64,000 nucleotides of DNA from Actinomycetes bacterium (GCA_031423155.1 JANPEZ010000113.1:814-64813), one strand, 5' to 3'. Positions 12,252-64,000 are shown, numbered from the stretch's first letter. Notes: generated from the letters alone by a model not told the origin. Made by a program: numbers and translations.

Positions 12252-12302
12252 CCGGGGGGCGCGGAAGCGTCTAGGATGTGCCGAGCAGGCCCCAGATGCG
12301 GG

Positions 12303-12950
12303 ATGGAGGCACGGTTGATCAGGGTAGCTATCGCAGACGACCACTCCCTCGTGCGGCAGGGACTTCGCCGGTACCTCGAGATGGCCGATGGCATCGAGGT
12401 GGTCGGCGAGGCCTCTAACGGCAAGGAGCTGATCGAGCTCGTCGAGAAGACCTCGCCCGAGATCGCTCTCGTCGATATCCGGATGCCGGAGATGGACGGG
12501 TTGGAGGCCGCGCGCGAGCTGCGCGACAAGTACCCCAACGTCGGTGTGATCATGCTCACCGCTTACGACGACCGTCAGTTCGTCGTAGAGGCGGTCCGAA
12601 GCGGAGCCCGCGGCTATGTGCTCAAGGCTCGAGACGCCGAGCATCTGATCCAGACGGTGCGCCTCGTCGCCGGCGGGAACATGGTCATCGATCCCCAGCT
12701 CGTCGTCGCGTTGGCCGAGGAGCTTTCCACCGCGAAGGAACGCGACCGGCGCGCCGAGACCTTGACCGCCCGGGAGATAGAGGTACTTCAGCTGCTCGCC
12801 TTCGGTCACACCAACCGCGATATAGCCGAACGGCTCTACATCTCCCCTGACACCGTCAAGACCCACCTCGAGCACATCTTCGAGAAGCTCGGCGCCTCGG
12901 ACCGCACAGCGGCCGTGGCCGAGGCGCTCCGACGGCGCCTCATCGAGTAG
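12303..12950 (+). CDS. NarL/LuxR family response regulator
   Basis: IADDHSLVRQG, LVDIRMPEMDG, GYVLK and C-terminal LTAREIEVL...ISPDTVKTH. Start could also be 12276. Confidence 0.93.
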   Translation: MEARLIRVAIADDHSLVRQGLRRYLEMADGIEVVGEASNGKELIELVEKTSPEIALVDIRMPEMDGLEAARELRDKYPNVGVIMLTAYDDRQFVVEAVRSGARGYVLKARDAEHLIQTVRLVAGGNMVIDPQLVVALAEELSTAKERDRRAETLTAREIEVLQLLAFGHTNRDIAERLYISPDTVKTHLEHIFEKLGASDRTAAVAEALRRRLIE

Positions 12951-13029
12951 GCCGTCCCCCTTACGGCCTAGTCCTGTTCAGCGCGGTCTTACCCGATTCG
13001 GGTGATGGAGGCATGCCCGTGCCTGGGCC

Positions 13030-23763: not shown

Positions 23764-24123
23764 AGCTCCGCTCCTCAGCACATGGGGAAGACCACACACC
23801 TGCGAGGGAGAGGAGGCGGCGACCGGCTCAACGAACAACCGACCACCGAAGGGATGGGAAGGCTAACCCGGAACCAACAGCACTTGAATCCCCAGACCGA
23901 CCGATTCCCGTTTCTTGTCGGGGGATGCGAGCGCGACACGCCGGCCCACCCGAAGTGATGCACGTCTCGTCCGTCAGGGATCCATCGGCCCGGCACTGCA
24001 GGAACAGACGGCAGGTCCCTCCCCCTTGCTGGATGCAACCCCGAGAAGCGAAGATACGCCCGTGGAGGACCTCAAGCAGGACGCCGGAGAGGGCGAACGA
24101 CGGCTCTGTTGGGTGACAAGCTG

Positions 24124-25467
24124 ATGCGCCGCGGAGACGTCCAGTTCGCGTGGAGCGACGACGTCGCGATCGCCTATCAGGTTGTCGGCGACGGCGCGCT
24201 CGATCTCATCTATCTACCCACCCTCTTGTCGAACCTCGACTGGCAATGGGAGCATCCGCGGCACGCGCGGTTCCTCGAACGGCTCGCGGAGTTCTCCAGG
24301 CTGATCGTGGTCGACCGGCGGGGCTGGGGCTGCTCGGATCGGGTCACGCCCGGATCCTTCCCGCCGCTCGAGGTGGCCGCCGACGACCTGATCGCCGTAC
24401 TCGACGCCATCGGCTCGTCGAAGGCTGCGCTCTTCGCCGGCGGCGAGGCCGGCTGGGTCGCTTCGATCGCTGCCGCGACGCATCCGGATCGGTTCTCCGC
24501 CTTGATCCTGTACCAGTCGGCCGCCGCCTGGGTCCGCACCGAGGAGACACCGTGGAACAACTCGCCGGAAGAATGGCAGGCGCAGGAGTCCTACTGGCTG
24601 GGCGCCGGAACGGTGAGTTTCATGGAGGGTTGGATCCGCGAGAACGAGCCCTCGCTCGCCGGCGATCGCGCGGCGGCCGAGTACCTGTCGAAGCTCGCCC
24701 GGGGGACGATCGGCGTGGGCGGTGCTCTGGCGGAATTCCGTCGCTATTACACCACCGATATCCGCGCGATCTTGCCATCTATCCAAGCGCCGACACTCGT
24801 GCTCTGCCGACCGGCGAACAAGACCGAATCACCGGAGAACGGCCCCTTCCTCGCCTCGAAGATCCCCGGCTCACGCTTCGTCGAGGTTCCCGGCGCCAAC
24901 TACATGCCGTGGACCGGTGAGTCCGAGGCTCTCATCGGAGAGATCGAGGAGTTCCTCACCGGCGTTCGCCACCAACCTATGTCCGATCGCGTGCTTGCGA
25001 CCGTGCTCTTCACCGACATCGTCGGCTCGACCGAGAAAGTGGCCCGATCCGGCGACGCGCGATGGAAGGATCTGTTGGCGTCGCACGACGAGAGGGCGAA
25101 GATCGAGATCGAAAGACACCGGGGGCGATATATAGACTCCACCGGTGATGGGCTACTGGCGACTTTCGACGGGCCGGCCCGTGCCGTGCGGTGCGCGGAA
25201 TCGTTGGGAGCAGCGGTACGCGACCTCGGCATCGAGATCCGCGCCGGCGTGCACACCGGAGAGGTTGAGCTCGATGGCGATGCGGTAACCGGCATCGCGG
25301 TCCACATCGGAGCACGTGTCGCCGCGCTGGCCGGCCCTTCTGAAGTACTCGTCTCCTCGACCGTAAGGAACCTCGTCGCCGGATCCGGGCTCGAATTCGA
25401 AGACGCGCACGAGCACGAACTCAAAGGCGTCCCCGATCGCTGGCACCTGTACCGGGTGGTGAAGTAG
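24124..25467 (+). CDS. Alpha/beta-hydrolase fused to class III adenylate/guanylate cyclase (LipJ/Rv1900c-like)
   Basis: IAYQVVGDG, DRRGWGCSDR; ATVLFTDIVGST, STGDGLLATFDGP, IRAGVHTGEVE and GIAVHIGARV. Confidence 0.9.
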   Translation: MRRGDVQFAWSDDVAIAYQVVGDGALDLIYLPTLLSNLDWQWEHPRHARFLERLAEFSRLIVVDRRGWGCSDRVTPGSFPPLEVAADDLIAVLDAIGSSKAALFAGGEAGWVASIAAATHPDRFSALILYQSAAAWVRTEETPWNNSPEEWQAQESYWLGAGTVSFMEGWIRENEPSLAGDRAAAEYLSKLARGTIGVGGALAEFRRYYTTDIRAILPSIQAPTLVLCRPANKTESPENGPFLASKIPGSRFVEVPGANYMPWTGESEALIGEIEEFLTGVRHQPMSDRVLATVLFTDIVGSTEKVARSGDARWKDLLASHDERAKIEIERHRGRYIDSTGDGLLATFDGPARAVRCAESLGAAVRDLGIEIRAGVHTGEVELDGDAVTGIAVHIGARVAALAGPSEVLVSSTVRNLVAGSGLEFEDAHEHELKGVPDRWHLYRVVK

Positions 25468-29171: not shown

Positions 29172-30266
29172 TCAGCCGGCCTCGCGGTCTTCCTCCTCCG
29201 CGGTTGCTAGCTTCGCCGCGAGCTTTTCGAAGGCGCGGCCCGTCCTGCCGCGCCGAGGGAGCAGGCGGCCGTGGTCCTGGGCGGCTGCGACTCCGGCGTC
29301 CACCGGGATGACCGCGATGGGCGCGTTGCCGAAGACTCGGCCAACGTCGGCGGGCGTGACCTCTGCCCGGTGGGCGCGATTGACGACGAATCCGACCTTG
29401 TCCAGGGCGCCGGCCGACTCGATAGCCGCCATCGCGCGTTTGGCGTCACGGAACGCCAGCACGTCCAGCGAGAGAACCACCAGGACCCGGTCAGCGATCG
29501 CGAAGCCGCAACGCGCGAACTCATCGAGCGCGCGGGGCAGATGAAGGATGACGACGTCAGCCGATGAAGCGGCGGCCTCGACCGCCGTTCGCAGGACGTT
29601 CGCCCCGACCGCCAGGGCCTCCTCGGCCTCGGGCGCCAGCAGCGCACGGAATCCGTCGGGGTGCGGCCACAAGATCTCGTCCAGATGCGCCGGCGAAAGC
29701 TCATCGATCAAGGGCAAGACGTCGGAAACGGTCCGGATGCCTTCCGTGGGCGCTCCGATCGCGCCGGCGACGTCTCCGAAGATCGGATCCATATCGATCA
29801 ACACGGTCTCGGCAGAACGGCGAGCGAAAGCTGCGGAAAGGTGGGTGGCGACGAACGTTGCCCCGACCCCGCCGCGCGGGCCGTAGACCGCGACCACCGT
29901 CGCCCGCCTGCCCGTCGTCGCCGCCGGCGCGGCAGAGGCCTCCGCGGCTCCGAGCAACTCCTGTCGATCCGCGGGCCAGACATAGAAGCCCCGCGCGCCG
30001 GCGCGGATGGCGCTGCGAAGAGCCGCCACCGACTCGCGGGTTTCGACCGCCAGCAGCGCCGCCCCTCCCGACAGTCCGGCACCTGCCAGAGACGGCTGCG
30101 CCACTACCGCGTCGGGCTCCAACTGGCGCACCGCCTCGACCAGCTGAACCCCGTCACCGCACATACCGACTATCTGTATCCGTCCGTTCCGATCGAGGAA
30201 GTGCATGACCTCCTCGGCAACGTCGTGCTCTTCGATGGCCAGGACCACCCTTGCGACTTCGACCAC
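29172..30266 (-). CDS. cpaE: CpaE/TadZ (Ssd-like) pilus localisation protein: receiver-like domain plus degenerate MinD/ParA ATPase
   Basis: AIRAGARGF, deviant Walker A GPRGGVGAT, LIDMDPIFGD and FVVNR. Confidence 0.85.
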   Translation of the reverse strand: MVEVARVVLAIEEHDVAEEVMHFLDRNGRIQIVGMCGDGVQLVEAVRQLEPDAVVAQPSLAGAGLSGGAALLAVETRESVAALRSAIRAGARGFYVWPADRQELLGAAEASAAPAATTGRRATVVAVYGPRGGVGATFVATHLSAAFARRSAETVLIDMDPIFGDVAGAIGAPTEGIRTVSDVLPLIDELSPAHLDEILWPHPDGFRALLAPEAEEALAVGANVLRTAVEAAASSADVVILHLPRALDEFARCGFAIADRVLVVLSLDVLAFRDAKRAMAAIESAGALDKVGFVVNRAHRAEVTPADVGRVFGNAPIAVIPVDAGVAAAQDHGRLLPRRGRTGRAFEKLAAKLATAEEEDREAG

Positions 30267-38396: not shown

Positions 38397-41300
38397 CTAT
38401 CCGGCCAGAGCGCGGATCTGCCGCAGTGCCACCGTCAGCTGCGCGATGTCAGTAACGCCTTCCATCGCAAGGGTTCGCATGAACCTGTGGAGCCGGGCGA
38501 AGGGCTCGGCCCTGCTCTCCAGGAATGCAGCCACGGCTTCCTCGACGCTCGCACCTTCCGGTGCCTCTTCGATGACGCGCTCGGCTATCTGGCGGCGGAC
38601 CAGGAATACATCGTCCTCCATCGACTGAACGGCCCAGCGTTGCCAGCGAGAACCTGTGGGCAGTTCCTCAAGGCGGTATTCGAGCCAGTCGATGTCGAGC
38701 TTCTCGCCGAGCATGAAGAAGACCCTGGCCACGTCGAGGACCTCGTGTCCGCAGGCCCGGCTGACCGTGATGATGTCCGGGCCGTGGACCAGTTCGGCCT
38801 GGAAGGCGTGGCGGCGGGCGGTCTGCTCGGGCACTCCCTCGGCGACCAGGCGGCGAACGATGTGCTCGTGTTCCTCGCGCCAGGTGTCCGAGCCGACCCC
38901 GTCGATGACGGCGGACAGCTCGGCGAAGGAGGCGGCAGCACCCTCGATCGCCTCGGAGAGCCGGGCGCCACCACCCTGGACCAACCACCAGCGCGAGGTC
39001 GCCTCTACGAGCCAGTCGACGCCGCTCAGAAGCTCGTTCTGAACAACCGGGTCGATCAGGCCGTCGAGCGACTCGACCGAGGCCCAACGCTCGACCGCAC
39101 CGGTGACGTCACGCGCGATACGGAATGCGCGCACAACGTCGGCGGGCTGGGCGCCGGTTTCGGTAGCCATCCGCGTGATGAACGTGATCCCCTGCGAGTT
39201 GACTACATCGTTCGCGATGATCGTGGCGTTCAACTCTCTACGCAGGGGGTGTTCATTCAGCAGAGGCCCGAAACGCTCCACGACGGCGGGCGGGAAATAG
39301 CGCCGAAGGTCGGCCTCCAGGTAGGCCGAGTCGGGAAGGTCGCTGCGAAGGATCGCGGCGGCCAGGGATCGCTTGGCGTAGGCCAGCAGCACCGCGAGCT
39401 CGGGACGGGCCATCCCGGCACCGGCCGCCCGCCGCTCAGCCATCTCCTCGGTCGTGGGCAGGAACTCGACCTCTCGCTCCAGCTCTCCCTCGGACTCGAG
39501 CTGTTGCATCAGATCCTCGTAGGACTCGATGCGCTGGGTCGAGACTTCGGCTTCCTGGGAGAGGATCTGAGCCTGCAGGTAGTTCGTGTACAGCACATGC
39601 GCCGTTACGTCCTGTGCGCATGACTCGAGGAGCTCGTTGCGGGCCTCGACGGTCAGCTCTCCCCGCTGGACCGCGAGGCCGAGCAGGATCTTCAGGTTGA
39701 CTTCGTGGTCGGAGCAGTCGACGCCGGCGGAGTTGTCGATGAAGTCGGTGTTGATACGCCCGCCGGCCTGCGCGTACTCGACGCGGCCGCGCTGGGTGAA
39801 CCCGAGGTTGCCGCCTTCGCCCACGACCCGGCAGCGAAGGTCCTTGCCGCTTACCCGGATCGCGTCGTTCGCGCGGTCCCCTGCCTCTGCGTTGGCCTCC
39901 TTTGAGGACTTCACGTAGGTGCCGATGCCCCCGTTCCAGAAGAGATCGACGGGTGCCTTCAAGATCGCTTTCATCACTTCGGCGGGCGTCATCTCCTCGG
40001 GGGCATCCTCGGCGATGCCGATCACGGCCCGGGCCTCGAATGAGAGTGTCACCGACTTGGCCTTGCGGTCCAGCACCGCCCCCCCCTCGGAAAGGAGCGA
40101 AGTGTCGTAGTCGGCCCAGGAGGAACCGGGCGTGTCGAACAGCCTGCGGCGTTCTACGAACGAGGCGGCGGGATCGGGCGAGGGATCCAAGAAGATGTTG
40201 CGGTGATCGAAGGCGGCCACCAGCCTTATCTGCTCGGACAGCAGCATCCCGTTGCCGAAGACATCGCCGGACATGTCGCCGACCCCGATGACCGTGAAGG
40301 GATGAGTCATCACGTCGACACCTATCTCGCGGAAGTGGCGCTTGACCGACTCCCACGCGCCGCGCGCGGTTATGGCCAGCTTCTTGTGGTCGTAGCCGGC
40401 GCTGCCGCCGCTGGCGAACGCGTCTCCCAACCAGAAGCCGTACTCTGCGCTGACCCGGTTCGCGGTATCGGAGAAGGTCGCGGTCCCTTTGTCGGCAGCG
40501 ACCACCAGGTAGGGGTCGTCATCGTCCAGAACGCGAACGTCGGCGGGGTGAACCACGGAACCATCGACGAGGTTGTCGGTCAGATCGAGCAGCCCACGCA
40601 TGAAGGTCACGTACTGGGTACTGACCTCCCGCTTCAGCTCCTCGGGGGTCGCCGTCGCGCGCTTCAGGATGAACCCACCCTTCGACCCGTCGGGAACTAT
40701 GACCGCGTTCTTCACCTTCTGGGCCTTCATCAGGCCGAGGACCTCGGTGCGGTAGTCCTCCTTGCGATCGGACCAACGGATGCCACCACGAGCGACCTTG
40801 CCTCCGCGCAGGTGGATGGCTTCCATCTCCGGCGAGTAGACGAAGATCTCGTACAACGGGAAGGGCTTGGGCATCTCCGGAACGTCTGCGGATGCGATCT
40901 TGAACGACAGGGTGTTGCGCCCGGGCCGGTATGCGTTGGTCCGCAGCGTCGCGTCGATGGTCCCGAGGAAGCCCCTGATGATCCGGTCCTGATCGAGCGA
41001 GGCCACCGAGCGCAGATCACGCAGGATCTCTTTCCTCAGTTGGTCGACCTGTTCGTCCGGCGCAGCTCTTGCCGGGTCGAACTTAGCTTCGAAGAGCCGG
41101 ACGAGTCGCGCCGCGATGTGAGGGTTCTCGGCGAACGCGTCGTTCTGGTACTCCTCGGTGAAACTGGCCGACACGCGCTGGCGATACTTGCGGTAGGCCC
41201 GCAGGATGGCGACCTCCCGGTGGGTCAGCGAGGCGGAGATGACCAGCCTGTTGAGCGAGTCGGTCTCAGCCTCCCCCCGCCAGATCGCGCTGATGGTGTC

Positions 41301-43193
41301 CGATACTCGCTCGGCGCTGGCCTCGAGGTCGAGCACCGCGCCGCGGGCATCGAGGACCCCGAAGTCGTGGATGTAGACCTTGCCCTCGCCTTGCAGGGCG
41401 GTCGGAACCTCCTCGACGACTCGAAGACCCAGCGATTCGAGGATGGGCATGAAGTCCGACAGATCGATCTTGCCGCCGGTCTTGTAGAGAGAGGCGCGTG
41501 TGAGCCGCTCGCCGGCGGCCTCGTTGCCCAAGCCGACGACGAAGCCTTGATCGCTCGACTCGAGCTCCTCCAGCCGGGCGACATCGCCCGCGATCAGTTC
41601 CCAGTCCGCGTTGGACTTGTAGTACTCGGGGAATCGCGCCGACCACTTGCTGGCAAGACCCGCACCCTCCTGCCCGTGGTGCTTGATCAATACGTCGTTG
41701 AGATCGTCGTCCCAGGTGCGCGCCAGCCGCATGACCTCTTCTTCAAGCTCCTCGAACGGAACGTCCGGGATGTGGCCGTGATCGATGTGAACCGTGAAGA
41801 AGATGCGGGCCACCTCGGACTCGCCCAATGCCAGGTGATAGTCGACGGAGGACCCGTTGAAGCGATCGACGAAGAGTTTCTGAAGCTTCTTGCGCAGGGC
41901 CGCGTTGAACCGGTCGCGTGGAAGCGCGACGACCACCGAAACACTGCGCCCGTAGAGGTCGCGGCGGACGAGAACCCGGATCCCCTGCTGTTTCTCGAGC
42001 TGCAGCAGACCGCGAACCAGAACCCGAAGCTCCTCGGTCGAGGCAAGGAACAGTTCGTCCTTCGGAAATGACTCGAAGAGCGCAACGGCGGCCTTGTAAT
42101 CGTGCGAACCCTCGAAGAGGTCCTCGGCGGCCAGGATCTGCTCGAGCTTGTGGTGAAGAAGCGGCGTCTTGGAGGCCGGGTCCATGTAGGCCTTGGACGT
42201 GAATAGCCCGATCAGGCGAGCCTCTCCGATGATGGACCCGTCGGCTGCGATCTTGCGGATCCCGATGTAGTCCATCCGCGCGCGCCGGTGCACCGTGGAT
42301 TGCGAGTTGGTCTTGGAGTAGATGAGCAGGTCGCCGTCTTCGATGCGGGCGCGCAGCGCCGGATCAAGACCCGAAAGCTGCACCGGCGTGGCGAAGGAGG
42401 ACCGGCCGGCATCCGACAAGATCCCCAACCCGGTGTTGGGTACAGCTTGCAGCGCCCGGCCCTCGGCAGTATCGATCAAGTCGTATTCGCGATACCCGAG
42501 CAGCACGAAATTCAGCTGCGAGAGCCACTGCAGGAAATCGACGGTCTCGCCGACCTCACTAGGGTCGTATCGAACCGCGCCGACTCGGGCAAGCTCGATC
42601 ATGTGAACGACTCGCTCCTGCATCGCCTCGAAATCTCTGACGACGAGGCGCACGTCGCGAAGCACGTTCCGGATGCTCTCGGCGAGATCTGCCAACTCTT
42701 CGTCCGAGAGGCGCCGATCCACCTCGATGTGCATCACGGATTCCCGGTGCAAGGCCTCACGGGCGTGAAGGACGCGCTCGATGTGGCCGCCCTCACCCCT
42801 GGCGGTGCCGATGACGGGGTGAAGCAGACGGCGGACGTTCAGGTTGCGAGCAGCCAGCTCCTCGGTTACGGAATCGACGAGGAACGGCGCGTCGTCGGTG
42901 TTCGTTTCCAGCACCGACCCGACGGTTCCGTATCCATCTGTCGCGATATCCGGGTTGAAGGCTCGGACGGCGCTCGGGTCATCTCCTCTGGAATCCGCCA
43001 GTTCGAAGGCGCCCATGACCTGGGCGAAGAGCTCCTCCAAGGGGACGCCGGAGGTCTCCTCTTCGGAGAGACGGCGGGTGTATGCCTTGGAGAAGGCGGA
43101 GATGGCGTCGCGGCGCTCGGGAGCGGCACGCTCGGAGATCAGGACGAGCAACTCCTCGATAGCGGACGCCGGGGTCTGGGTCTGCGGGTCCAC
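38397..43193 (-). CDS. gdhB: Large NAD-specific glutamate dehydrogenase
   Basis: DDAPFLVDSV, ARGGIRWSDR.EDYRTEVLGLMKAQKVKNAVIVP.GSKGGF, DPYLVVAADKGTATFSD, GDMSGDVFGNGML and NTDFIDNSAGVDCSDHEVN. Start placed at GTG 43193. Confidence 0.96.
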   Translation of the reverse strand: MDPQTQTPASAIEELLVLISERAAPERRDAISAFSKAYTRRLSEEETSGVPLEELFAQVMGAFELADSRGDDPSAVRAFNPDIATDGYGTVGSVLETNTDDAPFLVDSVTEELAARNLNVRRLLHPVIGTARGEGGHIERVLHAREALHRESVMHIEVDRRLSDEELADLAESIRNVLRDVRLVVRDFEAMQERVVHMIELARVGAVRYDPSEVGETVDFLQWLSQLNFVLLGYREYDLIDTAEGRALQAVPNTGLGILSDAGRSSFATPVQLSGLDPALRARIEDGDLLIYSKTNSQSTVHRRARMDYIGIRKIAADGSIIGEARLIGLFTSKAYMDPASKTPLLHHKLEQILAAEDLFEGSHDYKAAVALFESFPKDELFLASTEELRVLVRGLLQLEKQQGIRVLVRRDLYGRSVSVVVALPRDRFNAALRKKLQKLFVDRFNGSSVDYHLALGESEVARIFFTVHIDHGHIPDVPFEELEEEVMRLARTWDDDLNDVLIKHHGQEGAGLASKWSARFPEYYKSNADWELIAGDVARLEELESSDQGFVVGLGNEAAGERLTRASLYKTGGKIDLSDFMPILESLGLRVVEEVPTALQGEGKVYIHDFGVLDARGAVLDLEASAERVSDTISAIWRGEAETDSLNRLVISASLTHREVAILRAYRKYRQRVSASFTEEYQNDAFAENPHIAARLVRLFEAKFDPARAAPDEQVDQLRKEILRDLRSVASLDQDRIIRGFLGTIDATLRTNAYRPGRNTLSFKIASADVPEMPKPFPLYEIFVYSPEMEAIHLRGGKVARGGIRWSDRKEDYRTEVLGLMKAQKVKNAVIVPDGSKGGFILKRATATPEELKREVSTQYVTFMRGLLDLTDNLVDGSVVHPADVRVLDDDDPYLVVAADKGTATFSDTANRVSAEYGFWLGDAFASGGSAGYDHKKLAITARGAWESVKRHFREIGVDVMTHPFTVIGVGDMSGDVFGNGMLLSEQIRLVAAFDHRNIFLDPSPDPAASFVERRRLFDTPGSSWADYDTSLLSEGGAVLDRKAKSVTLSFEARAVIGIAEDAPEEMTPAEVMKAILKAPVDLFWNGGIGTYVKSSKEANAEAGDRANDAIRVSGKDLRCRVVGEGGNLGFTQRGRVEYAQAGGRINTDFIDNSAGVDCSDHEVNLKILLGLAVQRGELTVEARNELLESCAQDVTAHVLYTNYLQAQILSQEAEVSTQRIESYEDLMQQLESEGELEREVEFLPTTEEMAERRAAGAGMARPELAVLLAYAKRSLAAAILRSDLPDSAYLEADLRRYFPPAVVERFGPLLNEHPLRRELNATIIANDVVNSQGITFITRMATETGAQPADVVRAFRIARDVTGAVERWASVESLDGLIDPVVQNELLSGVDWLVEATSRWWLVQGGGARLSEAIEGAAASFAELSAVIDGVGSDTWREEHEHIVRRLVAEGVPEQTARRHAFQAELVHGPDIITVSRACGHEVLDVARVFFMLGEKLDIDWLEYRLEELPTGSRWQRWAVQSMEDDVFLVRRQIAERVIEEAPEGASVEEAVAAFLESRAEPFARLHRFMRTLAMEGVTDIAQLTVALRQIRALAG

Positions 43194-43279
43194 GAGGGAA
43201 CATTCTCGCAGGTCCGGATGGGCGTCGGCGTGGTGTGGACAGGTGAAGTGGGCGGCCGGTCTTACGCCTGGACGGCGCA

Positions 43280-44182
43280 CTATCGCGCCGCGTAGTCGGG
43301 GTAGTTGGCTTCCACGATCGGAATGAGGCCAGTCAGGTAGGCACCCCCCGTGCAGCCTCGGCACCACGCGCTCGCGTTGATCCACCTCGCGGTCGCGGCC
43401 GCCGGCGAGCATCCGCGAAGGGAGGACAGGATGGACTCGTACCCGTAGGAAGCTGCCCCCCCGGTCAGGGTCTCGACCGACGCCCGGACGCCCTGTTGCA
43501 CGGACATGTAGTTCTTGACCCCGACCGAGTTGAAGTTGGTCGCACCGGCCATGGAGTGCGTCGTCGCCAAGGGATTGAACCGGGCAGCCGTCGACTCCTG
43601 CGTCTGCCATGCGACGACAACGAGCAGGTTGTCGCCGCAGTCGGGTGCGCCGATGGCGGCAAGGAAGAGGCGCGCCCAACCCTCGTAGGTCCGTGAGACC
43701 GCGCCGGTTCCATCGCTAAGCCGGTCGACCAGCGCTTGAAGGTCATCCCTCTTCGACTGCATGTCGACCAGACGATCCTGGAAGCCTTGCACGCTCCGGG
43801 AAGTCGACGCGAAGGCCTCGCTCCGCTTCAGGCGGTGGTAGCGCAGGAGTGCCCGGTTGAGCTCGACCAGTTCCAGGGGCGGGGACATCATGCTCACGCG
43901 TAACGCCTCGGGGTTGGGGATCAGAACGCCGGCCTCACGCGCACTTGCGCGGGCGAAGTACAGGTGCCGCTCGGCCAGCAGGGCCCTGCCCTGCGATAGG
44001 TTCAAGTCGCCGATGCCCGCTCCCATCCGGGCTTGCACGGCGGCGATCCTGTGGTCGAGGTCGGCGAGCGCGACCCGAGCCGACGACAGGGTTGCCGGGA
44101 CCTGGGCGCGCGCGGGCAGCCCCCCGACGAGCGAAGAGACGGCGAGCAGCGCTGCTGCGAACCTGGATACGAGCCGGACCAC
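43280..44182 (-). CDS. Secreted coiled-coil protein with a C-terminal putative lysozyme-like cell-wall hydrolase domain
   Basis: Signal peptide (PARA|Q), heptad-rich middle, C-terminal WQTQES..ARFNPLATT...NFNSVGVKNY. Hydrolase function is inferred. Confidence 0.6.
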   Translation of the reverse strand: MVRLVSRFAAALLAVSSLVGGLPARAQVPATLSSARVALADLDHRIAAVQARMGAGIGDLNLSQGRALLAERHLYFARASAREAGVLIPNPEALRVSMMSPPLELVELNRALLRYHRLKRSEAFASTSRSVQGFQDRLVDMQSKRDDLQALVDRLSDGTGAVSRTYEGWARLFLAAIGAPDCGDNLLVVVAWQTQESTAARFNPLATTHSMAGATNFNSVGVKNYMSVQQGVRASVETLTGGAASYGYESILSSLRGCSPAAATARWINASAWCRGCTGGAYLTGLIPIVEANYPDYAAR

Positions 44183-44189
44183 GACCGTG

Positions 44190-44216
44190 GTATCGACTGA
44201 GCGCGGCCGAGCCTTG
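44190..44216 (-). promoter_or_regulatory. sigma28/WhiG-like promoter
   Basis: CAAG-N15-GTCGATAC on the minus strand, 7 nt before GTG 44182. Confidence 0.5.
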
Positions 44217-44221
44217 AACCG

Positions 44222-57748: not shown

Positions 57749-59293
57749 TCAAGGCGCGACCGACCAGTTCCACGTCCGCCAATCGACATCGGAGGAACTG
57801 GAGCTGGCCACGTTCCATTGATTGGTGAGCCACACGACACCGCGTGCCGCGGACATGGGCGCCGCCGGATCCGGGCTCGCCGAGGAATAATCGCCCCAAC
57901 GGCAGAGCGTGAAGTCGCACCCGAAATCGCGGTTGAACCCCTTCGACTGCTTGACGAGCTTCATCAACGACTGAGCCTTGCCTCCTCGTTTGGAAACCAT
58001 CTGGATCGCCGGATAAGTCGTAGCCGAAGAAGTGTTGAATCCGAACACCATGCTCTTTCCGAATGCGCTTCCGCCCGCAGATACGATGCGATCCGAGGAG
58101 ATCGACCCGTTGAACACGTAAAGATCGGGATCACTGACGATGCCGGACTGACGCAGGACCGGACTTGGGCTGACCGGATCGATCTCGTACCAGCGTTCTT
58201 CGGCGCCGGCGCCTCCTAGAACCGTGTGAGCGGTCCAGATCGACCAGCCGCTGAACCTCGGGTCGCGGGCGAGCACGGCCTGGAAGAAACGTCCGTCCAA
58301 CGTGTCCAGCAGGGGGCCGGAGACACCCTTCTGAGGAGCGTTGGCGGGCAAGGAATACGAGGGCACCGTCACCTTTCGAGGCGGACCGAGCACCGCCGCC
58401 CCGGAGCCCAGATCCTTGGTCACGGTATAGACCGTCACGTTTCCGGAGCTGGCGACCACCGTCATGTCGGGGTTGGCGATGACGTACCCGGTGCTCGAAT
58501 CATCGATCTGGTTCGAGGGCACAGGAGTCGCGGCTTGCGCGCCGCTACCCAGCTTGATGTTCGAGAAGACCCCGGTGGTGAAACCACCCAAGCTGGGACA
58601 GGTGGTGATAGGTCCGGCGGGCGGTTTGGTCATCCACATCACATCCGACCCTAGGTAGACATCGGAGGGGTCGAACACGTTCGCCCCGATCAGAAGGAAG
58701 TCGGAGGTGTCGCCGAGTTTCGGGTAGTCGGGCAGGTCGACGCCGTAGCCGAAGTTCACCGGATACGAGCAGAAGTCCCCCCGTGCCGAAGGGGTTTCGG
58801 TCTTGCTGAAGCCGATACCTATCTTGTTGGTGCAGTAGTCAAGCACCGCGTAGTAGAAGCGTTGCGTACTCGCATCCCAGATGACCTGAGGGTCCGTCAG
58901 GCACGAGTCTGAGATCCCGGCCAGGCTGCCCAGATCGCCGGCGTCCAATAGGGCTCCGGCCCTGTCGTAGATGCCGAATCGGCCGTTCGTGAGCTGAACG
59001 TAGCGCTCGGGGCCGACGGCTCCCACGGCGTCAGGAGGAGTGACGCCGGCATCCTTCTGACCCGGCCACGCCAGGGTGGTCACCGGAGCACGACCGACGA
59101 GCGCCCGCGCATCGTTGGAGCTCGCCTCAGCCCATCGGCCAGCGGCCGCCTTGGCATCTCGAAGGGCCTCCGGGTGAAGCGGCAGGTATCCGAGTTCGGG
59201 CGCCGACGCGCGGATCTGTGCCTGAGCAGGCAGCCCCGTGATCGGTGAAACGACGACCAGAAGCAAGGCGATGATCGTCGAAACCCTCTTCAC
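57749..59293 (-). CDS. Secreted Cys-containing protein of unknown function (PPD-x-x-GAVG motif)
   Basis: Signal peptide (AQA|Q), PPDAVGAVGPERYVQLTN, DPQVIWD, DYPKLG and RWGDYSS. Confidence 0.75.
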   Translation of the reverse strand: MKRVSTIIALLLVVVSPITGLPAQAQIRASAPELGYLPLHPEALRDAKAAAGRWAEASSNDARALVGRAPVTTLAWPGQKDAGVTPPDAVGAVGPERYVQLTNGRFGIYDRAGALLDAGDLGSLAGISDSCLTDPQVIWDASTQRFYYAVLDYCTNKIGIGFSKTETPSARGDFCSYPVNFGYGVDLPDYPKLGDTSDFLLIGANVFDPSDVYLGSDVMWMTKPPAGPITTCPSLGGFTTGVFSNIKLGSGAQAATPVPSNQIDDSSTGYVIANPDMTVVASSGNVTVYTVTKDLGSGAAVLGPPRKVTVPSYSLPANAPQKGVSGPLLDTLDGRFFQAVLARDPRFSGWSIWTAHTVLGGAGAEERWYEIDPVSPSPVLRQSGIVSDPDLYVFNGSISSDRIVSAGGSAFGKSMVFGFNTSSATTYPAIQMVSKRGGKAQSLMKLVKQSKGFNRDFGCDFTLCRWGDYSSASPDPAAPMSAARGVVWLTNQWNVASSSSSDVDWRTWNWSVAP

Positions 59294-59324
59294 GGCGGCC
59301 TTTCGGGGTCAGCGGACCCGCCAA

Positions 59325-59350
59325 TGGTCCCAGCCCCTCACTAGGGACCA
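59325..59350. promoter_or_regulatory. Perfect 7-bp inverted repeat in the divergent promoter region
   Basis: TGGTCCC-N12-GGGACCA. Confidence 0.35.
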
Positions 59351-59392
59351 CAACAGGAACGGTCGCTATCGGAGGAAAACAGCCGATGGGGT

Positions 59393-59419
59393 TAAGTCGG
59401 TCGCCAGACACGCCGATGC
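59393..59419 (+). promoter_or_regulatory. sigma28/WhiG-like promoter of the alpha-oxoamine synthase gene
   Basis: TAAG-N15-GCCGATGC, 10 nt before ATG 59430. Confidence 0.55.
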
Positions 59420-59429
59420 GGTCTGGGCG

Positions 59430-60791
59430 ATGGCTACAGAAGACCTGACTCAGCCTACCCCGATGCGTCGTACCGCCGACCGGCTCAAGCGCCGGCAGGC
59501 CGACATGCCGGTAGGTCCTTCTGCCAACGGAAAGCCGCGCCGTCGTCTGGAAGACGGGTGGCTCGAACGGTGGATGGACACCGTCTCGGATCTCTCTCGC
59601 CTCAAGAACTCGCACCCGATGTTGGACGCCGTCATCGAGGAGCAGGAGGGGCGCCGCATCCGGATCGGCAAGCAGTGGCTTGCGGACTTCGCCAGTTGCA
59701 ACTACCTGGGATTCGATCTCGACCAAGAGATCATCGACTCGATCCCCGAGTACGTCGCCAAGTGGGGGACCCACCCCTCGTGGTCGCGGCTGCTGGGAAG
59801 CCCGATCATGTACGAGGAGATCGAGGAGCAGATGGCCGAACTCCTCGACGTGGAGGATGTGCTTCTGCTTCCGACCATCACTCACATCCATACTTCCGTC
59901 ATCCCGGTACTGGTCGGTGACGGGACCATCTTCATGGACGGTCGGGCCCACAAGACGATCTACGACGGCTGCATGTATGCGGCCGGGCATGGGGCCACCG
60001 TGAAACGCTTCCGCCACAACGATCCTCAGCATCTTGACGAGTTGCTCGCAGCCAGCGATCCCGCACTCCCGCGCGTGATCGCGATGGACGGTGTCAACAG
60101 CATGACGGGCAACGCCCCCGACATCGCGGCGTTCGGCCAACTCGCCCGAGAGCACGACGTCCTCCTGTACGTGGACGACGCCCACGGGTTCGGCGTGATC
60201 GGTGAGCGCTCCCCCGACGAGCTCTGCGACTACGGGACGAAAGGGAACAGCGTGATGCGTCACCTAGACGTGCCCTACGAGAACACGGTCCTCGTGGCCG
60301 GATTCTCCAAGGCGTACTCGTCACTTCTGGCCTTCCTCGCGCTCCCGACGAAACTGAAGGACGTTCTGAAGGTCCTGGCTCCGCCGTACCTCTACTCGGG
60401 TCCTTCTCCCATCGCATCTTTGGCGACGACCCTGACCGGCCTGGAGGTCAACCGTAAGCGCGGCGACCAGTACCGGCTCGATCTGTGGACGAAGACTCAC
60501 CGCGTCCTGGACGCCCTCGACGAGCTCGGCATCTACACGCCGAACGAGTCCGGATACCCCATCATCGAGGTTCCACTCGCGGACCACGAGGAGATAGACG
60601 AGGTTGGCCGCTACCTGTTCGATCACGGGATCTACGTGACGATGGCTGCCTATCCCCTGGTGCCCAAGAACGAGGTTGGATTCCGCGTCCAGCTGACGGC
60701 GGCCAACTCCGACGAGGAGATCGACGATCTGATCCGCGTCCTGGGCCAGCTCAAGGAGCACTTCCAGCTCCGCCAGCACGCCGAGGTCTGA
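59430..60791 (+). CDS. PLP-dependent alpha-oxoamine synthase (AONS/BioF/CqsA/SPT family)
   Basis: FASCNYLG, SRLLG, DGRAHKTI, FRHND, DGVNSMTG, VDDAHGFG and GFSKAY (PLP Lys). Start at 59430 or 59463. Confidence 0.9.
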   Translation: MATEDLTQPTPMRRTADRLKRRQADMPVGPSANGKPRRRLEDGWLERWMDTVSDLSRLKNSHPMLDAVIEEQEGRRIRIGKQWLADFASCNYLGFDLDQEIIDSIPEYVAKWGTHPSWSRLLGSPIMYEEIEEQMAELLDVEDVLLLPTITHIHTSVIPVLVGDGTIFMDGRAHKTIYDGCMYAAGHGATVKRFRHNDPQHLDELLAASDPALPRVIAMDGVNSMTGNAPDIAAFGQLAREHDVLLYVDDAHGFGVIGERSPDELCDYGTKGNSVMRHLDVPYENTVLVAGFSKAYSSLLAFLALPTKLKDVLKVLAPPYLYSGPSPIASLATTLTGLEVNRKRGDQYRLDLWTKTHRVLDALDELGIYTPNESGYPIIEVPLADHEEIDEVGRYLFDHGIYVTMAAYPLVPKNEVGFRVQLTAANSDEEIDDLIRVLGQLKEHFQLRQHAEV

Positions 60792-60815
60792 GAACCCTCC
60801 GAAGATTCAGCCCGA

Positions 60816-60837
60816 TGACCAGCGTTTGCCCTGGTCA
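60816..60837. other. 7-bp hairpin between the synthase and GGDEF-EAL genes
   Basis: TGACCAG-cgtttgcc-CTGGTCA; could be a terminator, processing site or operator. Confidence 0.4.
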
Positions 60838-60880
60838 GAGGGGATTCCGCTGATACCGCTAACTGGGTAGCCCCAACGCC

Positions 60881-60908
60881 TAAGGTCGGCCTCAAGTCCC
60901 GCCGATAG
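60881..60908 (+). promoter_or_regulatory. sigma28/WhiG-like promoter of the GGDEF-EAL gene
   Basis: TAAG-N16-GCCGATAG, 8 nt before ATG 60917; no SD is present. Confidence 0.65.
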
Positions 60909-60916
60909 CTCCCTAG

Positions 60917-63900
60917 ATGAAGAAGCGCGCCTGGTACCTCTATCCGGCCCTCGCGGCCGTTGCCACCACCGCCTACCTTGCGGTGCGCACCGGCCCGGCA
61001 CCGGACTTCACTCACCCCAGCTGGGCCTTCAACCTGATCGGACTCTCCTCTCCACTGTTCATCCTGCTGGCTGTTCGGATCCACAAACCTGACTACCGGA
61101 TCCCGTGGTTCCTCTTCGCCGCCGGTCAGTTCCTGTTCATCTGCGGCGACGTAGTGGCCTACAACTACGACAGATTCCACAGCCTGCTACCGAGCATCTT
61201 CACCTTCCAGGACGGGGGCATGCCGTTCCCCTCGCCGGCCGACGTTCTGTATCTGTCCGTCTACCCATGTCTGATCGCTGGGCTGCTGCTGTTGCTGCGC
61301 CGTCGCAGTCCCGGACGCGACACGGCGAGCTTCATCGACTCGCTCATGGTCGCTATCGGCGTCGGCACTCTCTCCTGGGTGTTCCTGATCTCTCCGTACG
61401 TGCACGACTCGTCGATGACGGGTCTGTCCAAGCTGGTCTCGATGGGCTACCCGGTGATGGACCTGCTCATGGCCGCGGTCGCCGTTCGGCTGGCGGTGGG
61501 CGCCGGAAGGCGAGCATCATCGTTCAACCTCATCATGCTCTCGATCGTCGCACTATTCGCTACGGATGCCATCTACGGATGGTTGCTCCTGAACAACGGG
61601 TACGTTCCCGGCAGCGGCGACCTCGAACTGGGCTGGGTGGCGTTCTACGTCTTGTTCGGAGCCGCGGCCCTGCACCCGTCGATGCGTACGCTGTCCGATC
61701 AGGTTGGGGATGCCAAGACGAAGCTGACGCAGGGCCGCCTTGGCCTGCTCGCCGGAGCTACGTTGCTGGCACCTGCGGCTCAGGCCATACAGTCCCTGCG
61801 CGATCTTCCTGTCGACCTTCCCGTTGTGCTGGGGGCGACCGTCGTGCTGTTCGCGCTGGCGATCGTGAGGATGGCCGGTCTCGTCCACAAAGAGGAACAG
61901 TCAACCCTGCGTGAGAAGGCTCTTCGCGAAGCGGGTGCGGCGCTGGTGACCGCGACCAACCGCGAGGGCATCTATGAGGCGGCCCTGGAGGCCACCCGTT
62001 CGCTGGCCGGCCTGAACGCCGCCGTCCGCGTCTGCGTGGTTAAGGACGAGGGCGACACCCTCGTGGTCGTTGCCTCGGCCGGTGGTAGTCGCGACACGGT
62101 AGGCGAGACCTTCGATTTCTCCTCCCTGGCGGCCTGGAAGCGCGAGAAGCTGCTGGGACACGGGTCGTATCAGGTGCCCGCGAGCGAGAGTTCGATGCAG
62201 GACGAGCTGGACCCCTCGACTCTCGGCGGGATGTTGTCGGTAGCACCTTTGTTCATCCGCGATGAGTTCCGAGGGATGATCCTGGTGGCCGCCGGAGCCG
62301 AGACAGATTCCAGGGCGATCACAGATGGGTTGGAAGCCCTTGCCTCACAGGTCGCCCTAGCCCTCGAGTCGGCTGCCCTTACAGAGGGGATGCTGCTCCA
62401 GGAGAGTGAGAAGCGTTTCGCCTCCTTGGTTCAGAACTCCTCGGACATCGTCAATCTGATCGAGCCGGACACGACCGTGCGCTACGCCAGCCCCGCCACG
62501 GCGCGGGTCCTGGGCATGCAACCCGACCAGATGGAGGGCACCAAGTTCTCGGCGATAGTCCACCCGGAGGACAAGACACGTGTCCTGACCTTCCTCACGT
62601 CCATGGGAGAGGAAGGCGCCACCGGGCTGATCGAGTACCGGATCAAGCACAACGACGGGCACTGGATCTTCGTCGAGACCCTCAGGACGAACCTGTTGCA
62701 CGACCCGAACGTGAAGGGCATCGTCGCCAACACTCGTGACATCACCGAACGCAAGGCCTTCGAAGAGCAGCTCTCGCACCAGGCCTTCCACGACCCGATC
62801 ACCAACCTGGCCAACAGAGCGCTGTTCCGCGACCGCGTTACCCACGCGCTCGAGCGCCAGGGCCGCGACGGCAAGCCGATCGCGGTGGTCTTCATGGACC
62901 TTGACGACTTCAAGACGGTCAACGACTCGCTTGGCCACGCAGCCGGCGACCAGATGCTGGCCGAGGTTGGCGACCGCCTGCGCAACTGCCTGCGCGCCGC
63001 CGACACAGCGGCCCGCCTGGGCGGAGACGAGTTCGCGATCCTCCTGGAGGACGGCGGCGACGGGATACAGGCCGCGGACGTCGCCGATCGCATCATGCAA
63101 GCCCTCGAGGCGCCCTTCCAGCTGGAGGGCAAGGAAGTCTTCGGCCGTGCCAGCATCGGCATCGCCGTGGTTGAGGGTGACAACGTTACCCAAGGTCAAG
63201 AGGGTGTCGAAGAGGTCCTGCGCAACGCAGACGTCGCGATGTACATGGCCAAGGAGAACGGCAAGGGCCGCTACCAGATCTTCGAGACAGCGATGCACGA
63301 CACGGCCCTCAAGCGCCTGGAACTCAAGGGCGACCTGCAACGCGCGCTCGAGCACGATGAGTTCATCCTCAACTACCAGCCCGTCATCGAGTTGGAGACA
63401 GGCCGCATCCTGGGTGTCGAGGCGCTGATCCGCTGGATCCATCCCGAGCGTGGCTTGGTTCCGCCCCTGGACTTCATCCCCCTTGCCGAGGAGACGGGTC
63501 TGATCATCGCGATCGGTCGCTGGGTTCTGCGAGAGGCCTGCACCAAGGCCGTGGAGCTTCAGAATCAGTTCCCCAGCGATCCCAAGTTCCACATGGCCGT
63601 GAACCTGTCGGCTCGCCAGCTGCAGCGACCCGAGATCGTCGAAGAGGTTAGGTCGATCCTGGAGGAGACCGGCCTGGACGCGGACTCGCTGGTTCTGGAG
63701 ATCACGGAGTCCGTGATGATGGCCGATATGGAACTGTCGATCGCTCGCCTCACCGAGCTGAAAGACCTGGGCGTCAAGCTCGCGGTGGACGACTTCGGGA
63801 CCGGCTACTCCTCGCTGAACTACATCCGCCGGTTCCCGGTCGACATCTTGAAGGTGGACAAGTCCTTCGTCGACGGCGTCAACGAAGGCGGGGAGGCGTC

Positions 63901-64000
63901 CGCCCTGACAGCCGCGGTCATCGAACTTGCCGGCATCTTGAACCTGAAGCCTGTCGCCGAGGGCATCGAGCGAGCCGACCAGCTAGAGCGACTGCTGGAG
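60917..64000 (+). CDS. 3'-truncated multi-TM sensor-GAF-PAS-GGDEF-EAL c-di-GMP enzyme (absent from the ORF track because it has no stop in the window)
   Basis: Hand translation: MKKRAWYLYP..., about 9-10 TM (FPSPADVLYLSVYP, GYPVMDLL), GAF-like segment, PAS (LVQNSSDIV...VHPED), HDPITNLANR, RAAD...RLGGDEF, VEALIRW, DDFGTGYSSL, KVDKSF and VAEGIE. Confidence 0.95.
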   Translation, partial: MKKRAWYLYPALAAVATTAYLAVRTGPAPDFTHPSWAFNLIGLSSPLFILLAVRIHKPDYRIPWFLFAAGQFLFICGDVVAYNYDRFHSLLPSIFTFQDGGMPFPSPADVLYLSVYPCLIAGLLLLLRRRSPGRDTASFIDSLMVAIGVGTLSWVFLISPYVHDSSMTGLSKLVSMGYPVMDLLMAAVAVRLAVGAGRRASSFNLIMLSIVALFATDAIYGWLLLNNGYVPGSGDLELGWVAFYVLFGAAALHPSMRTLSDQVGDAKTKLTQGRLGLLAGATLLAPAAQAIQSLRDLPVDLPVVLGATVVLFALAIVRMAGLVHKEEQSTLREKALREAGAALVTATNREGIYEAALEATRSLAGLNAAVRVCVVKDEGDTLVVVASAGGSRDTVGETFDFSSLAAWKREKLLGHGSYQVPASESSMQDELDPSTLGGMLSVAPLFIRDEFRGMILVAAGAETDSRAITDGLEALASQVALALESAALTEGMLLQESEKRFASLVQNSSDIVNLIEPDTTVRYASPATARVLGMQPDQMEGTKFSAIVHPEDKTRVLTFLTSMGEEGATGLIEYRIKHNDGHWIFVETLRTNLLHDPNVKGIVANTRDITERKAFEEQLSHQAFHDPITNLANRALFRDRVTHALERQGRDGKPIAVVFMDLDDFKTVNDSLGHAAGDQMLAEVGDRLRNCLRAADTAARLGGDEFAILLEDGGDGIQAADVADRIMQALEAPFQLEGKEVFGRASIGIAVVEGDNVTQGQEGVEEVLRNADVAMYMAKENGKGRYQIFETAMHDTALKRLELKGDLQRALEHDEFILNYQPVIELETGRILGVEALIRWIHPERGLVPPLDFIPLAEETGLIIAIGRWVLREACTKAVELQNQFPSDPKFHMAVNLSARQLQRPEIVEEVRSILEETGLDADSLVLEITESVMMADMELSIARLTELKDLGVKLAVDDFGTGYSSLNYIRRFPVDILKVDKSFVDGVNEGGEASALTAAVIELAGILNLKPVAEGIERADQLERLLE

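Follow-up and report, generated by a model that had tools for sequence, protein, structure and literature searches.

Background

In the CqsA/CqsS system of Vibrio (signal CAI-1), the LqsA/LqsS/LqsT system of Legionella (signal LAI-1) and the JqsA/JqsS system, the gene of a pyridoxal phosphate (PLP)-dependent enzyme of the alpha-oxoamine synthase (AONS) family adjoins the gene of a polytopic membrane receptor. To our knowledge, autoinducers made by AONS enzymes (CAI-1, LAI-1) have been described from Proteobacteria only; Actinomycetota are known to signal mainly with butyrolactones, butenolides and furans. Here we describe a similarly arranged gene pair from an Actinomycetes bacterium, at the 3' end of a 64,000-nucleotide (nt) stretch of DNA (GCA_031423155.1, JANPEZ010000113.1:814-64813; hereafter the window, with positions counted from its first letter), which comprises an AONS-family gene and a gene for a membrane sensor with the domains of a cyclic di-GMP (c-di-GMP) turnover enzyme. 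As in CqsS and LqsS, the output is a histidine kinase in some lineages, and extra orphan receptors exist, as exemplified by LqsT. Unlike CqsA and LqsA, the window enzyme falls outside their clade, and unlike CqsS and LqsS, which have 6 transmembrane (TM) helices, the receptor has 10 and no Pfam or PDB relative, the contrast with CqsS and LqsS being one of helix count. Instead of a phosphorelay, the output is mainly a c-di-GMP enzyme of the GGDEF-EAL type, and further differences from the CqsA/LqsA systems are a frequent third member from the major facilitator superfamily (MFS), the Actinomycetota host and the predicted leaderless promoters of the WhiG type.

The sequences closest to the window enzyme belong to another kind of system, namely the AONS domains of assembly lines, which follow a fatty acyl-AMP ligase and an acyl carrier protein (FAAL-ACP-AONS), terminate polyketide synthases (PKS) or occur in SxtA/AprA-like proteins. 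The chemistry is presumably the same, i.e. an acyl-thioester and an amino acid yield an alpha-aminoketone. Unlike these domains, the window enzyme stands alone: adenylation, carrier-protein, ketosynthase (KS) and acyltransferase (AT) domains are absent from the protein and are not a conserved part of its locus, and its partner is a signalling protein, not a biosynthetic cluster. Membrane-anchored GAF/PAS-GGDEF-EAL enzymes are exemplified by the CdgC/RmdB type of Streptomyces and the mycobacterial GAF-GGDEF-EAL protein DcpA/Rv1354c. The window sensor shares with such enzymes of Actinomycetota the cytoplasmic order (GAF and/or PAS, GGDEF, EAL) and the intact catalytic motifs; we know of no CdgC/RmdB- or DcpA-type enzyme that is paired with an AONS enzyme.

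Genes of diguanylate cyclases and phosphodiesterases (DGC/PDE) are the most widespread predicted targets of the sigma factor WhiG in the phylum, specialised-metabolite genes are also among its predicted targets, and the published WhiG2 consensus is T(A/C)AA-N16-GCCGATAA (PMC12871210). WhiG and a single-motif version of RsiG are present in Thermoleophilia and Rubrobacteria, and 5 of the 12 mapped WhiG promoters of R. radiotolerans precede DGC/PDE genes (PMC8325347). The locus described here resembles these regulons in having a GGDEF-EAL gene behind a promoter like T(A/C)AA-N16-GCCGATAA in a basal actinobacterial lineage, where c-di-GMP could likewise feed back on WhiG. Unlike the present case, an AONS target, a 10-TM input domain or a synthase-sensor pairing are not described in those studies, and the main text of PMC12871210 does not mention an aminotransferase.

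Results and Discussion

A conserved pair of synthase and sensor genes

The two genes lie in a region of ~65% G+C, with exactly 125 nt between the stop codon of the first and the ATG of the second:

59430..60791, + strand: AONS-family gene, 453 amino acids (aa); enclosing open reading frame (ORF) 59238..60791
60917 to window end, + strand: 10-TM/GAF/PAS/GGDEF/EAL gene, starting with ATG 60917; 1028 aa visible, cut by the window end

The initial annotation of this DNA had described an AONS gene without bio, kbl/tdh or lipid-synthesis neighbours, followed 125 nt later by a gene for a multi-TM protein with GAF, PAS, GGDEF (with I-site) and EAL domains. Profile scans with Pfam and NCBIfam agree with both descriptions, no bio, tdh/kbl or lipid genes being found among the AONS neighbours in the window, and AlphaFold2 modelling puts the number of TM helices at 10. 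The adjacency to multi-TM GGDEF/EAL or kinase genes, on which its proposal of a signalling circuit leaned, turned out to be strongly conserved. A genome scan (one genome per GTDB species) yielded 568 AONS relatives, of which the best 80 (63–79% identity) were used; these are metagenome-assembled genomes (MAGs) from Actinomycetota, among them members of the Gaiellales, Solirubrobacterales and Thermoleophilaceae. Among the 72 loci whose 3' flank extends for 1.5 kb or more, 68 have a 10-TM gene at most 4 kb downstream on the same strand, and in 44 of these the two genes are separated by less than 250 nt; of the remaining four, three are AONS-MFS pairs and one gave fragmented matches. In the paired loci the identity of the AONS is 63–79% and that of the TM domain 40–58%, and across orders the identity of the AONS is 63–86%. 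In 46 of 60 loci there is an efflux gene of the MFS_3/EntS/Tet(V) type at a distance of at most 6 kb. The following architectures were found, some of them with a short-chain dehydrogenase/reductase (SDR) or a tetratricopeptide repeat (TPR) protein:

AONS, sensor: the window type
AONS, SDR, sensor: SDR in either orientation
AONS, TPR, MFS, sensor
AONS, sensor, MFS: the Solirubrobacterales type, gaps 25–70 nt; the AONS-sensor spacing looks like that of one operon
AONS, 10TM-PAS-HisKA-HATPase, MFS: with or without a GGDEF-EAL sensor (L009, L028, L039, L041, L103)

Beside the AONS clade, the 10-TM domain is fused to three output types, i.e. GGDEF-EAL, a PAS-HisKA kinase and a HisKA_3 kinase, and the genes occur in either order. 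Kinase versions of the sensor are found in L009, L028, L039, L041, L081–L083 and L088–L117. The HisKA_3-type member P0182 is followed by an AONS of the same clade (63% identical), and a reciprocal metagenome survey seeded with the TM domain of P0182 revealed a kinase followed by an AONS in ~17 of 17 HisKA_3-HATPase loci with enough flank. Even P0254, whose AONS identity is only 44%, precedes a 10-TM homologue (30% identity, E-value 1e-23). Moreover, the single 1500-aa ORF P0242 joins 10TM-PAS-GGDEF-EAL, via a linker of ~70 aa, to an AONS domain; this fusion is found in two samples, on two contigs whose junction DNA is identical. Taken together, these comparisons of gene content and sequence establish a functional link between the AONS clade and the 10-TM domain, maintained across changes of output, of gene order and of sequence at depth, and a pair that recurs, is variably partnered and is once fused suggests a so far undescribed small-molecule signalling circuit.

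Several further features of the related loci were recorded. Two apparent AONS-MFS fusions (P0256, P0350), as well as P0323, were not counted, as they seem to result from frameshifts or deletions and to be artefacts. An SDR directly adjoins the AONS gene in 8 loci; the same SDR orthologue (57–82% identity) lies between AONS and sensor in opposite orientations in L002, L003 and L087 versus L012, L014, L027, L031 and L043, and in the SDR-bearing loci a C45-family acyltransferase/hydrolase (PF03417) is often encoded just 5' of the AONS. In L085 (11445-14641) the sensor is called as two proteins of 293 aa and 772 aa, and the near-identical L086 (11445-14639) has one ORF of 1064 aa, so the split is probably a frameshift or an assembly error; split tblastn matches to the sensor were also seen in L043, L051, L058 and L059.

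A stand-alone AONS related to assembly-line domains

The AONS ORF matches Aminotran_1_2 (PF00155) with an E-value of 2.7e-26, and its catalytic residues align with those of the Thermus AOS structure 8s1y: the Schiff-base Lys (GFSKAYSS), DDAHGFG and the PLP-stacking His (RAHKT). All 11 of its 11 NCBIfam matches are to models of the AONS family. On these grounds of profile and motif, the window enzyme is a member of the AONS family, PLP fold type I. It also has an N-terminal extension of ~45 aa, which is basic and carries a conserved WL(E/D)RW motif. The NCBIfam and related models, which include serine palmitoyltransferase (SPT) and 5-aminolevulinate synthase (ALAS), and the sequence matches in the PDB score as follows, no NCBIfam match reaching its curated cut-off:

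bioF (TIGR00858): 185 bits, cut-off 426; top NCBIfam model
SPT (NF047599): 172 bits, cut-off 500
BioF/Kbl-related model: 163 bits, cut-off 535
SPT (NF047600): 155 bits, cut-off 640
Kbl (NF005394): 153 bits, cut-off 460
ALAS: 128 bits, cut-off 339
Kbl (TIGR01822): 120 bits, cut-off 493
SPT (NF047603): 117 bits, cut-off 670
CqsA-type autoinducer synthase (PRK07179): 88.5 bits, cut-off 428
PDB, Thermus AOS/KBL: 135 bits, best match
PDB, SPT: 117 bits
PDB, Kbl: 112 bits
PDB, BioF: ~90 bits
PDB, ALAS: ~90 bits
PDB, CqsA: 52 bits, weakest of the named subfamilies

Outside its own clade, the nearest relatives found in a full HMMER scan of 1.84 billion representatives (35–43% identity, 230–330 bits) are C-terminal AONS domains of FAAL-ACP-AONS proteins (~1090 aa), of PKS with KS, AT, dehydratase (DH) and ACP domains (KS-AT-DH-ACP-AONS), and of AprA/SxtA-like loading modules, as compared with an identity of ~25–29% to BioF, Kbl and SPT. 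A bootstrapped neighbour-joining tree of 47 domains, built without CqsA, LqsA, SPT and ALAS references, unites the enzymes of the window, of the HisKA_3-class loci and of Solirubrobacterales with the fused domain of P0242 in one group of stand-alone AONS; bootstrap support is 90–93 if the group is taken widely and only 40 if it is taken narrowly. The assembly-line domains form the sister group of these stand-alone enzymes, and E. coli Kbl and BioF lie far outside. Since the tree lacks them, the position relative to CqsA, LqsA, SPT and ALAS was judged by the scores of curated models and PDB sequences. Judged by the tree and these scores, the enzyme is outside BioF, Kbl, SPT and CqsA/LqsA, in agreement with the expectation of the initial annotation that it would not group with BioF or Kbl, and it also stays below the cut-offs of BioF, Kbl, SPT and ALAS; its closest kin by sequence are the AONS domains of FAAL-ACP, PKS and SxtA-like assembly lines.

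Public pipelines label the AONS as "8-amino-7-oxononanoate synthase". There are >6800 homologues, and the best 120, all at least 72% identical, come from uncultured Actinomycetota. The best plasmid-borne relative (29% identity) is from a plasmid of Rubrobacter radiotolerans. No cultured carrier was identified, the protein searches and the genome scan having returned MAGs and metagenomes only.

A sensor with a 10-helix membrane domain

The sensor gene encodes the following domains:

60917..61921, + strand: 10-helix TM sensor module (aa 1–335); AlphaFold2 model, no Pfam or PDB match
61964..62368, + strand: GAF (aa 350–484); PF13492, E-value 1.4e-6
62414..62755, + strand: PAS (aa 500–613); PAS_3, PAS_4, TIGR00229 71.9 bits
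62783..63268, + strand: GGDEF (aa 623–784); Pfam, 156 bits
63332..64000, + strand: EAL (aa 806–1027); Pfam, 230 bits, last ~35 aa beyond the window

The GGDEF motif (aa 702, 63020-63034) and the RxxD I-site (RAAD-x5-GGDEF at aa 693, with RAAD at 62993-63004) are intact, as are the catalytic motifs of the EAL domain (EAL 835, DDFGTG 958, KVD 979, EGIE near 1015), so that by its motifs the protein is a GGDEF-EAL enzyme of c-di-GMP turnover. Full-length orthologues have 1051–1065 aa.

The N-terminal part (aa 1–335) contains ~10 hydrophobic segments, and its AlphaFold2 model, built with 76 homologues, exhibits 10 TM helices (pLDDT 93, pTM 0.90). A known sensor family was sought for this region, and Pfam yielded only HAAS_TM (E-value 0.03); a Foldseek comparison of the model with the PDB gave no significant match (best E-value 0.035, TM-score at most 0.37). 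Invariant positions include W64, D78, D109, D141, W154, Y178, P179, R191, D217, H253, R274 and R318, and Asp, Arg, His and Trp are all represented among the invariant residues predicted to be intramembrane. According to our own inference of the topology from the model, the invariant aspartates D78, D109, D182 and D217 are predicted to lie within TM3, TM4, TM6 and TM7, respectively, and one may speculate that such intramembrane aspartates would suit a protonated amine ligand. In searches with the 10-TM domain alone, the homologues carry HisKA, HisKA_3, GGDEF, PAS or GAF outputs, or none, and therefore it can be regarded as a modular input domain.

Promoter-like elements upstream of both genes

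Each of the two genes is preceded by an element that resembles promoters of the sigma28/WhiG type:

59393..59419, + strand: P1, TAAG, 15 nt, GCCGATGC; end of the octamer 10 nt 5' of ATG 59430
60881..60908, + strand: P2, TAAG, 16 nt, GCCGATAG; end of the octamer 8 nt 5' of ATG 60917

The pattern TAAG-N14-17-GCCGAT has exactly two matches in the window, at 59393 and 60881, both on the + strand and 10–13 nt 5' of start codons; chance alone would give 0.19 matches, and two were reached in 2 of 100 shuffles. A repeat search paired 59396-59417 with 60885-60906 (77% identity). In 87 related loci, a sigma28-like scoring pattern (TAAA/TAAG, 14–17 nt, GCCGATAA) gave scores of at least 10 with the following frequencies, which correspond to an enrichment of ~30-fold over the background:

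5' of the AONS gene: 28/87 loci
5' of the 10-TM gene: 29/79 loci
random 170-nt windows of the same loci: 0.9%

A looser pattern, T[AC]A[AG]-N15/16-NCCGA[TA], is present 5' of the AONS in 55 loci and 5' of the sensor gene in 32. The end of the CCGAT hexamer is nearly always 10–13 nt 5' of the start codon, and the spacer sequences are free to differ; in the version found on the sensor side, TAAGGTC-N-NCCGATA[TCG], the hexamer ends 10 nt from the start codon (32 loci). Because the distance from promoter to start is short and fixed, leaderless or near-leaderless mRNAs are predicted. The same geometry, retained in 55 orthologous loci, identifies ATG 59430 as the AONS start, and the database call P0001 (442 aa) begins 11 codons late relative to this ATG (453 aa). 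In HisKA_3-class loci, the called AONS start (386 aa) removes the conserved N-terminal WL(D/E)RW motif. Thus, the similarity of the two upstream regions that was noticed in the initial annotation is real and unique to two sites in 64 kb, and its reading as sigma28-type promoters is backed by phylogenetic footprinting in the 55 and 32 loci and fits the WhiG2 consensus. P2 has 2 mismatches to TAAA/GCCGATAA and passes the rule of PMC8325347, and many orthologous sites fit the strict -35 rule of PMC12871210 exactly.

A riboswitch or small RNA was considered as the cause of the upstream similarity and rejected, as there was no credible Rfam match in 58900-61200. A sigma gene near the HisKA_3-class locus L081, the only one seen close to a related locus, was considered as a WhiG candidate and turned out to be of the SigB/F type. 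Scans for an intrinsic terminator and for a sigma70-type promoter between the two genes found none; the intergenic region contains one other feature:

60811..60842, + strand: imperfect short inverted repeat, CCCGATGACCAG / CTGGTCAGAGGG, without a T-tract; it may not be a terminator

Two similar motifs occur elsewhere in the window. At 44193-44217 on the - strand, TCAAGG-N-GTCGATAC lies 9 nt before the GTG of ORF 43280-44182 (-), an unknown 300-aa protein without a Pfam match, which sits just upstream of a giant NAD-glutamate dehydrogenase gene; to judge by this motif, whose geometry is the same as in P1 and P2, the ORF may belong to the same regulon. At 24071-24099 on the + strand, CTCA-N17-GGCGAACG, which resembles the published WhiG1 consensus CTCA-N16-17-GCCGAACT, precedes TTG 24109 of ORF 24109-25467; its product combines an alpha/beta-hydrolase with a class-III nucleotide cyclase, and it adjoins a T2SSE ATPase gene.

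Neighbourhood in the window

According to Pfam and NCBIfam, the genes 5' of the AONS encode an unknown 514-aa protein, a NAGPA phosphodiester glycosidase, a metallophosphoesterase and a class-III aminotransferase. A search of the window for a second copy of the 10-TM domain found only one other kinase (13030-15168), which is non-homologous; it belongs to a segment on the + strand (12252-15168) that encodes a LuxR-type response regulator and, after it, a PAS-HisKA_3 kinase of 712 aa, whose N-terminal ~350 aa are unrelated to the 10-TM domain. The glutamate dehydrogenase mentioned above (38397-43679, -) is a 1760-aa bacterial NAD-specific enzyme in which the set of ACT and helical domains is complete. 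The T2SSE secretion/pilus ATPase gene (22480-23838, -), a CpaE/ParA-like gene (29172-30266, -) and the neighbouring cyclase gene suggest a possible Tad/pilus cluster.

A possible signalling circuit and its alternatives

In our judgement there is an even chance that the two genes form the core of a signalling module of Thermoleophilia-like and other uncultured Actinomycetota, with a synthase, an exporter and a receptor that feeds into c-di-GMP. The cytoplasmic AONS would condense an amino acid and an acyl thioester, of either CoA or ACP, to a small molecule of the alpha-aminoketone type, which in some lineages would be further reduced by the adjacent SDR. The product would leave the cell, in most lineages presumably by way of the clustered MFS pump of the EntS/drug:H+-antiporter type, and the product or its derivative would be the cue for the 10-helix membrane domain of the neighbouring protein, which seems the most economical mechanism. 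That domain would relay the signal to the synthesis or breakdown of c-di-GMP (in the window) or to histidine-kinase outputs (in other lineages). Both genes would be transcribed as leaderless mRNAs from promoters of the WhiG (sigma28) type, which place them in a regulon that in related classes is controlled by c-di-GMP via RsiG; this makes a feedback loop plausible, and since WhiG is held by the c-di-GMP-dependent anti-sigma factor RsiG in this part of the phylum, the sensor output could feed back on the expression of both synthase and sensor. From the genes and their arrangement we infer, within this model, what the product is, that it is exported and how it relates to the receptor as a ligand, as well as the direction in which c-di-GMP changes and the loop through WhiG and RsiG.

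The model has to be weighed against a number of observations that speak against it or limit its reach. It rests as a whole on comparative genomics, and because the 80 loci were picked by AONS similarity, the pairing frequency of 94% applies to relatives that are at least 63% identical. Outside this range, P0244 and P0248 (AONS 46% identical) have no 10-TM neighbour. Orphan 10-TM sensors without a nearby AONS occur in L084, L107, L111, L112 and L114, and in L020, L050 and L053 the MFS gene follows the AONS and the sensor is absent, so the coupling of AONS and sensor is not obligatory. A search of the full 64 kb found no MFS_3, SDR, PF03417-type acyltransferase (AAT) or TPR partner of the pair, and the closest relatives of the window locus likewise have no MFS_3, SDR or TPR partner. 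The fusion in P0242 stems from a single population; a covalent union of synthase and receptor is not typical of known autoinducer systems, and it would agree equally well with a membrane domain that regulates or supplies the enzyme. As to the promoters, P1 has 3 mismatches to TAAA/GCCGATAA, the -35 element of both P1 and P2 (TAAG) fails the strict, exact T(A/C)AA rule of PMC12871210, and no whiG or rsiG gene was seen in the window or in the related loci.

The two genomic contexts without a 10-TM neighbour have features of their own. P0244 (L126) is surrounded by genes for two single-domain CheY-like regulators, two histidine kinases (one with dCache-HAMP) and PilM/pilin proteins, a signalling context that recalls LqsA-LqsR. 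P0248 (L127) follows an AMP-dependent ligase, the stop codon of which overlaps the AONS start, and is followed by GNAT and ATP-grasp genes, which hints at a partner that forms an acyl-adenylate or acyl-CoA for the wider AONS group.

Among the alternative explanations, a housekeeping enzyme (BioF for biotin, or Kbl for threonine/glycine) placed beside a c-di-GMP enzyme by chance appears highly improbable. The public name 8-amino-7-oxononanoate synthase, the rank of bioF as top NCBIfam model, the Thermus AOS/KBL enzyme as best PDB match and the very wide distribution and conservation of the gene would all agree with such a role, but the scores are far below the cut-offs (185 bits versus 426 for bioF, 153 versus 460 for Kbl), bio and tdh neighbours are lacking in the window and in the annotated loci, the position of E. 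coli BioF and Kbl far outside the group of the enzyme in the tree and its 35–43% identity to assembly-line AONS versus ~25–29% to BioF, Kbl and SPT point elsewhere, and the conserved linkage to the sensor domain would be left unexplained. Somewhat more credible, yet still unlikely, is a role in envelope or lipid homeostasis: an AONS of the SPT type would make a long-chain amino-ketone or amino-alcohol membrane lipid, for which the SDR of some loci would serve as ketoreductase, the 10-TM domain would monitor this lipid in the bilayer or help to handle it there and tune c-di-GMP or the kinase, and the MFS protein would flip or export it, no signal passing between cells. SPT does score near bioF (172 versus 185 bits; PDB SPT 117 bits), long acyl chains are handled by the FAAL-ACP-AONS proteins among the nearest relatives, the SDR next to the AONS in 8 loci recalls 3-ketosphinganine reductase beside SPT, a fusion of sensor and enzyme suits local sensing within the membrane, and the strong conservation of the AONS (63–86% identity across orders) is as expected for a structural function. 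However, all SPT equivalog cut-offs are missed widely (172 versus 500), neither ACP, acyl-ACP synthetase, ceramide synthase nor other lipid genes are conserved in the loci, the SDR is found in a minority of them and in either orientation, and the partner MFS proteins are of the EntS/Tet(V) efflux kind and not from a lipid flippase family.

Or perhaps the two genes share only their regulation, an explanation to which we assign much the same low probability as to a membrane lipid: the AONS and the MFS protein would make and export a specialised metabolite (an antibiotic, a pyrazine or a metal-binding compound), and the sensor would be a separate member of the WhiG regulon that reads an unrelated membrane or external cue, the adjacency reflecting a shared timing of expression. 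This would account for the separate promoter-like element before each gene, for the orphan sensors and for the AONS-MFS pairs without a sensor; the closest relatives of the enzyme are indeed secondary-metabolite enzymes, and both kinds of gene are predicted WhiG targets, DGC/PDE genes being the commonest (PMC12871210). It does not explain, however, why three output architectures that share only the 10-TM domain are found beside one clade of enzymes in both gene orders, and it is also at odds with the persistence of the pairing at 44% (AONS) and 30% (10-TM) identity, with the union of synthase and sensor in one protein and with the operon-like spacing of 25–70 nt in the Solirubrobacterales type.

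If the AONS product is sensed by the neighbouring membrane protein, as we propose, the likeness to CqsA and LqsA drawn in the initial annotation would be one of design: a synthase adjoining a membrane sensor is indeed found, but the enzyme is not a relative of CqsA/LqsA (88.5 versus 428 bits). Its claim of novelty can be upheld for the module, no description of which was found in the literature on AONS with c-di-GMP, GGDEF or sensor kinases and on CqsA in Actinobacteria/Thermoleophilia; the AONS and MFS partners, the 10-TM input domain and the fusion are new, but a DGC/PDE gene under a WhiG promoter is by itself an already known theme.

Conclusions

In a broader and more tentative version of the proposal, which we regard as possible though on balance doubtful, the pair would represent a widespread system of soil bacteria, in which a new clade of stand-alone AONS makes an exported autoinducer of the aminoketone type, and new 10-helix receptors with an acidic intramembrane pocket pass it on to c-di-GMP or histidine kinases inside the WhiG-RsiG-c-di-GMP switch. 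Among basal Actinomycetota, such a module would be represented by genomes of hundreds of species and by metagenome protein clusters that number in the thousands.

If the proposal is correct, an AONS-based circuit akin to quorum sensing would for the first time be known outside Proteobacteria, and it would also be the first such circuit with a direct input into c-di-GMP. It would provide a concrete primary signal for the WhiG-RsiG-c-di-GMP switch, the upstream inputs of which are largely unknown, and a candidate source of the ligand for an orphan input domain common to many kinases and c-di-GMP enzymes. It would also correct the widespread mis-annotation of thousands of proteins named "8-amino-7-oxononanoate synthase". 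Most carriers are uncultured Thermoleophilia-like bacteria, and a new class of signals, together with a new receptor fold, would be added to a phylum that dominates soil; the prospects of finding such a signal class in this major soil phylum appear good.

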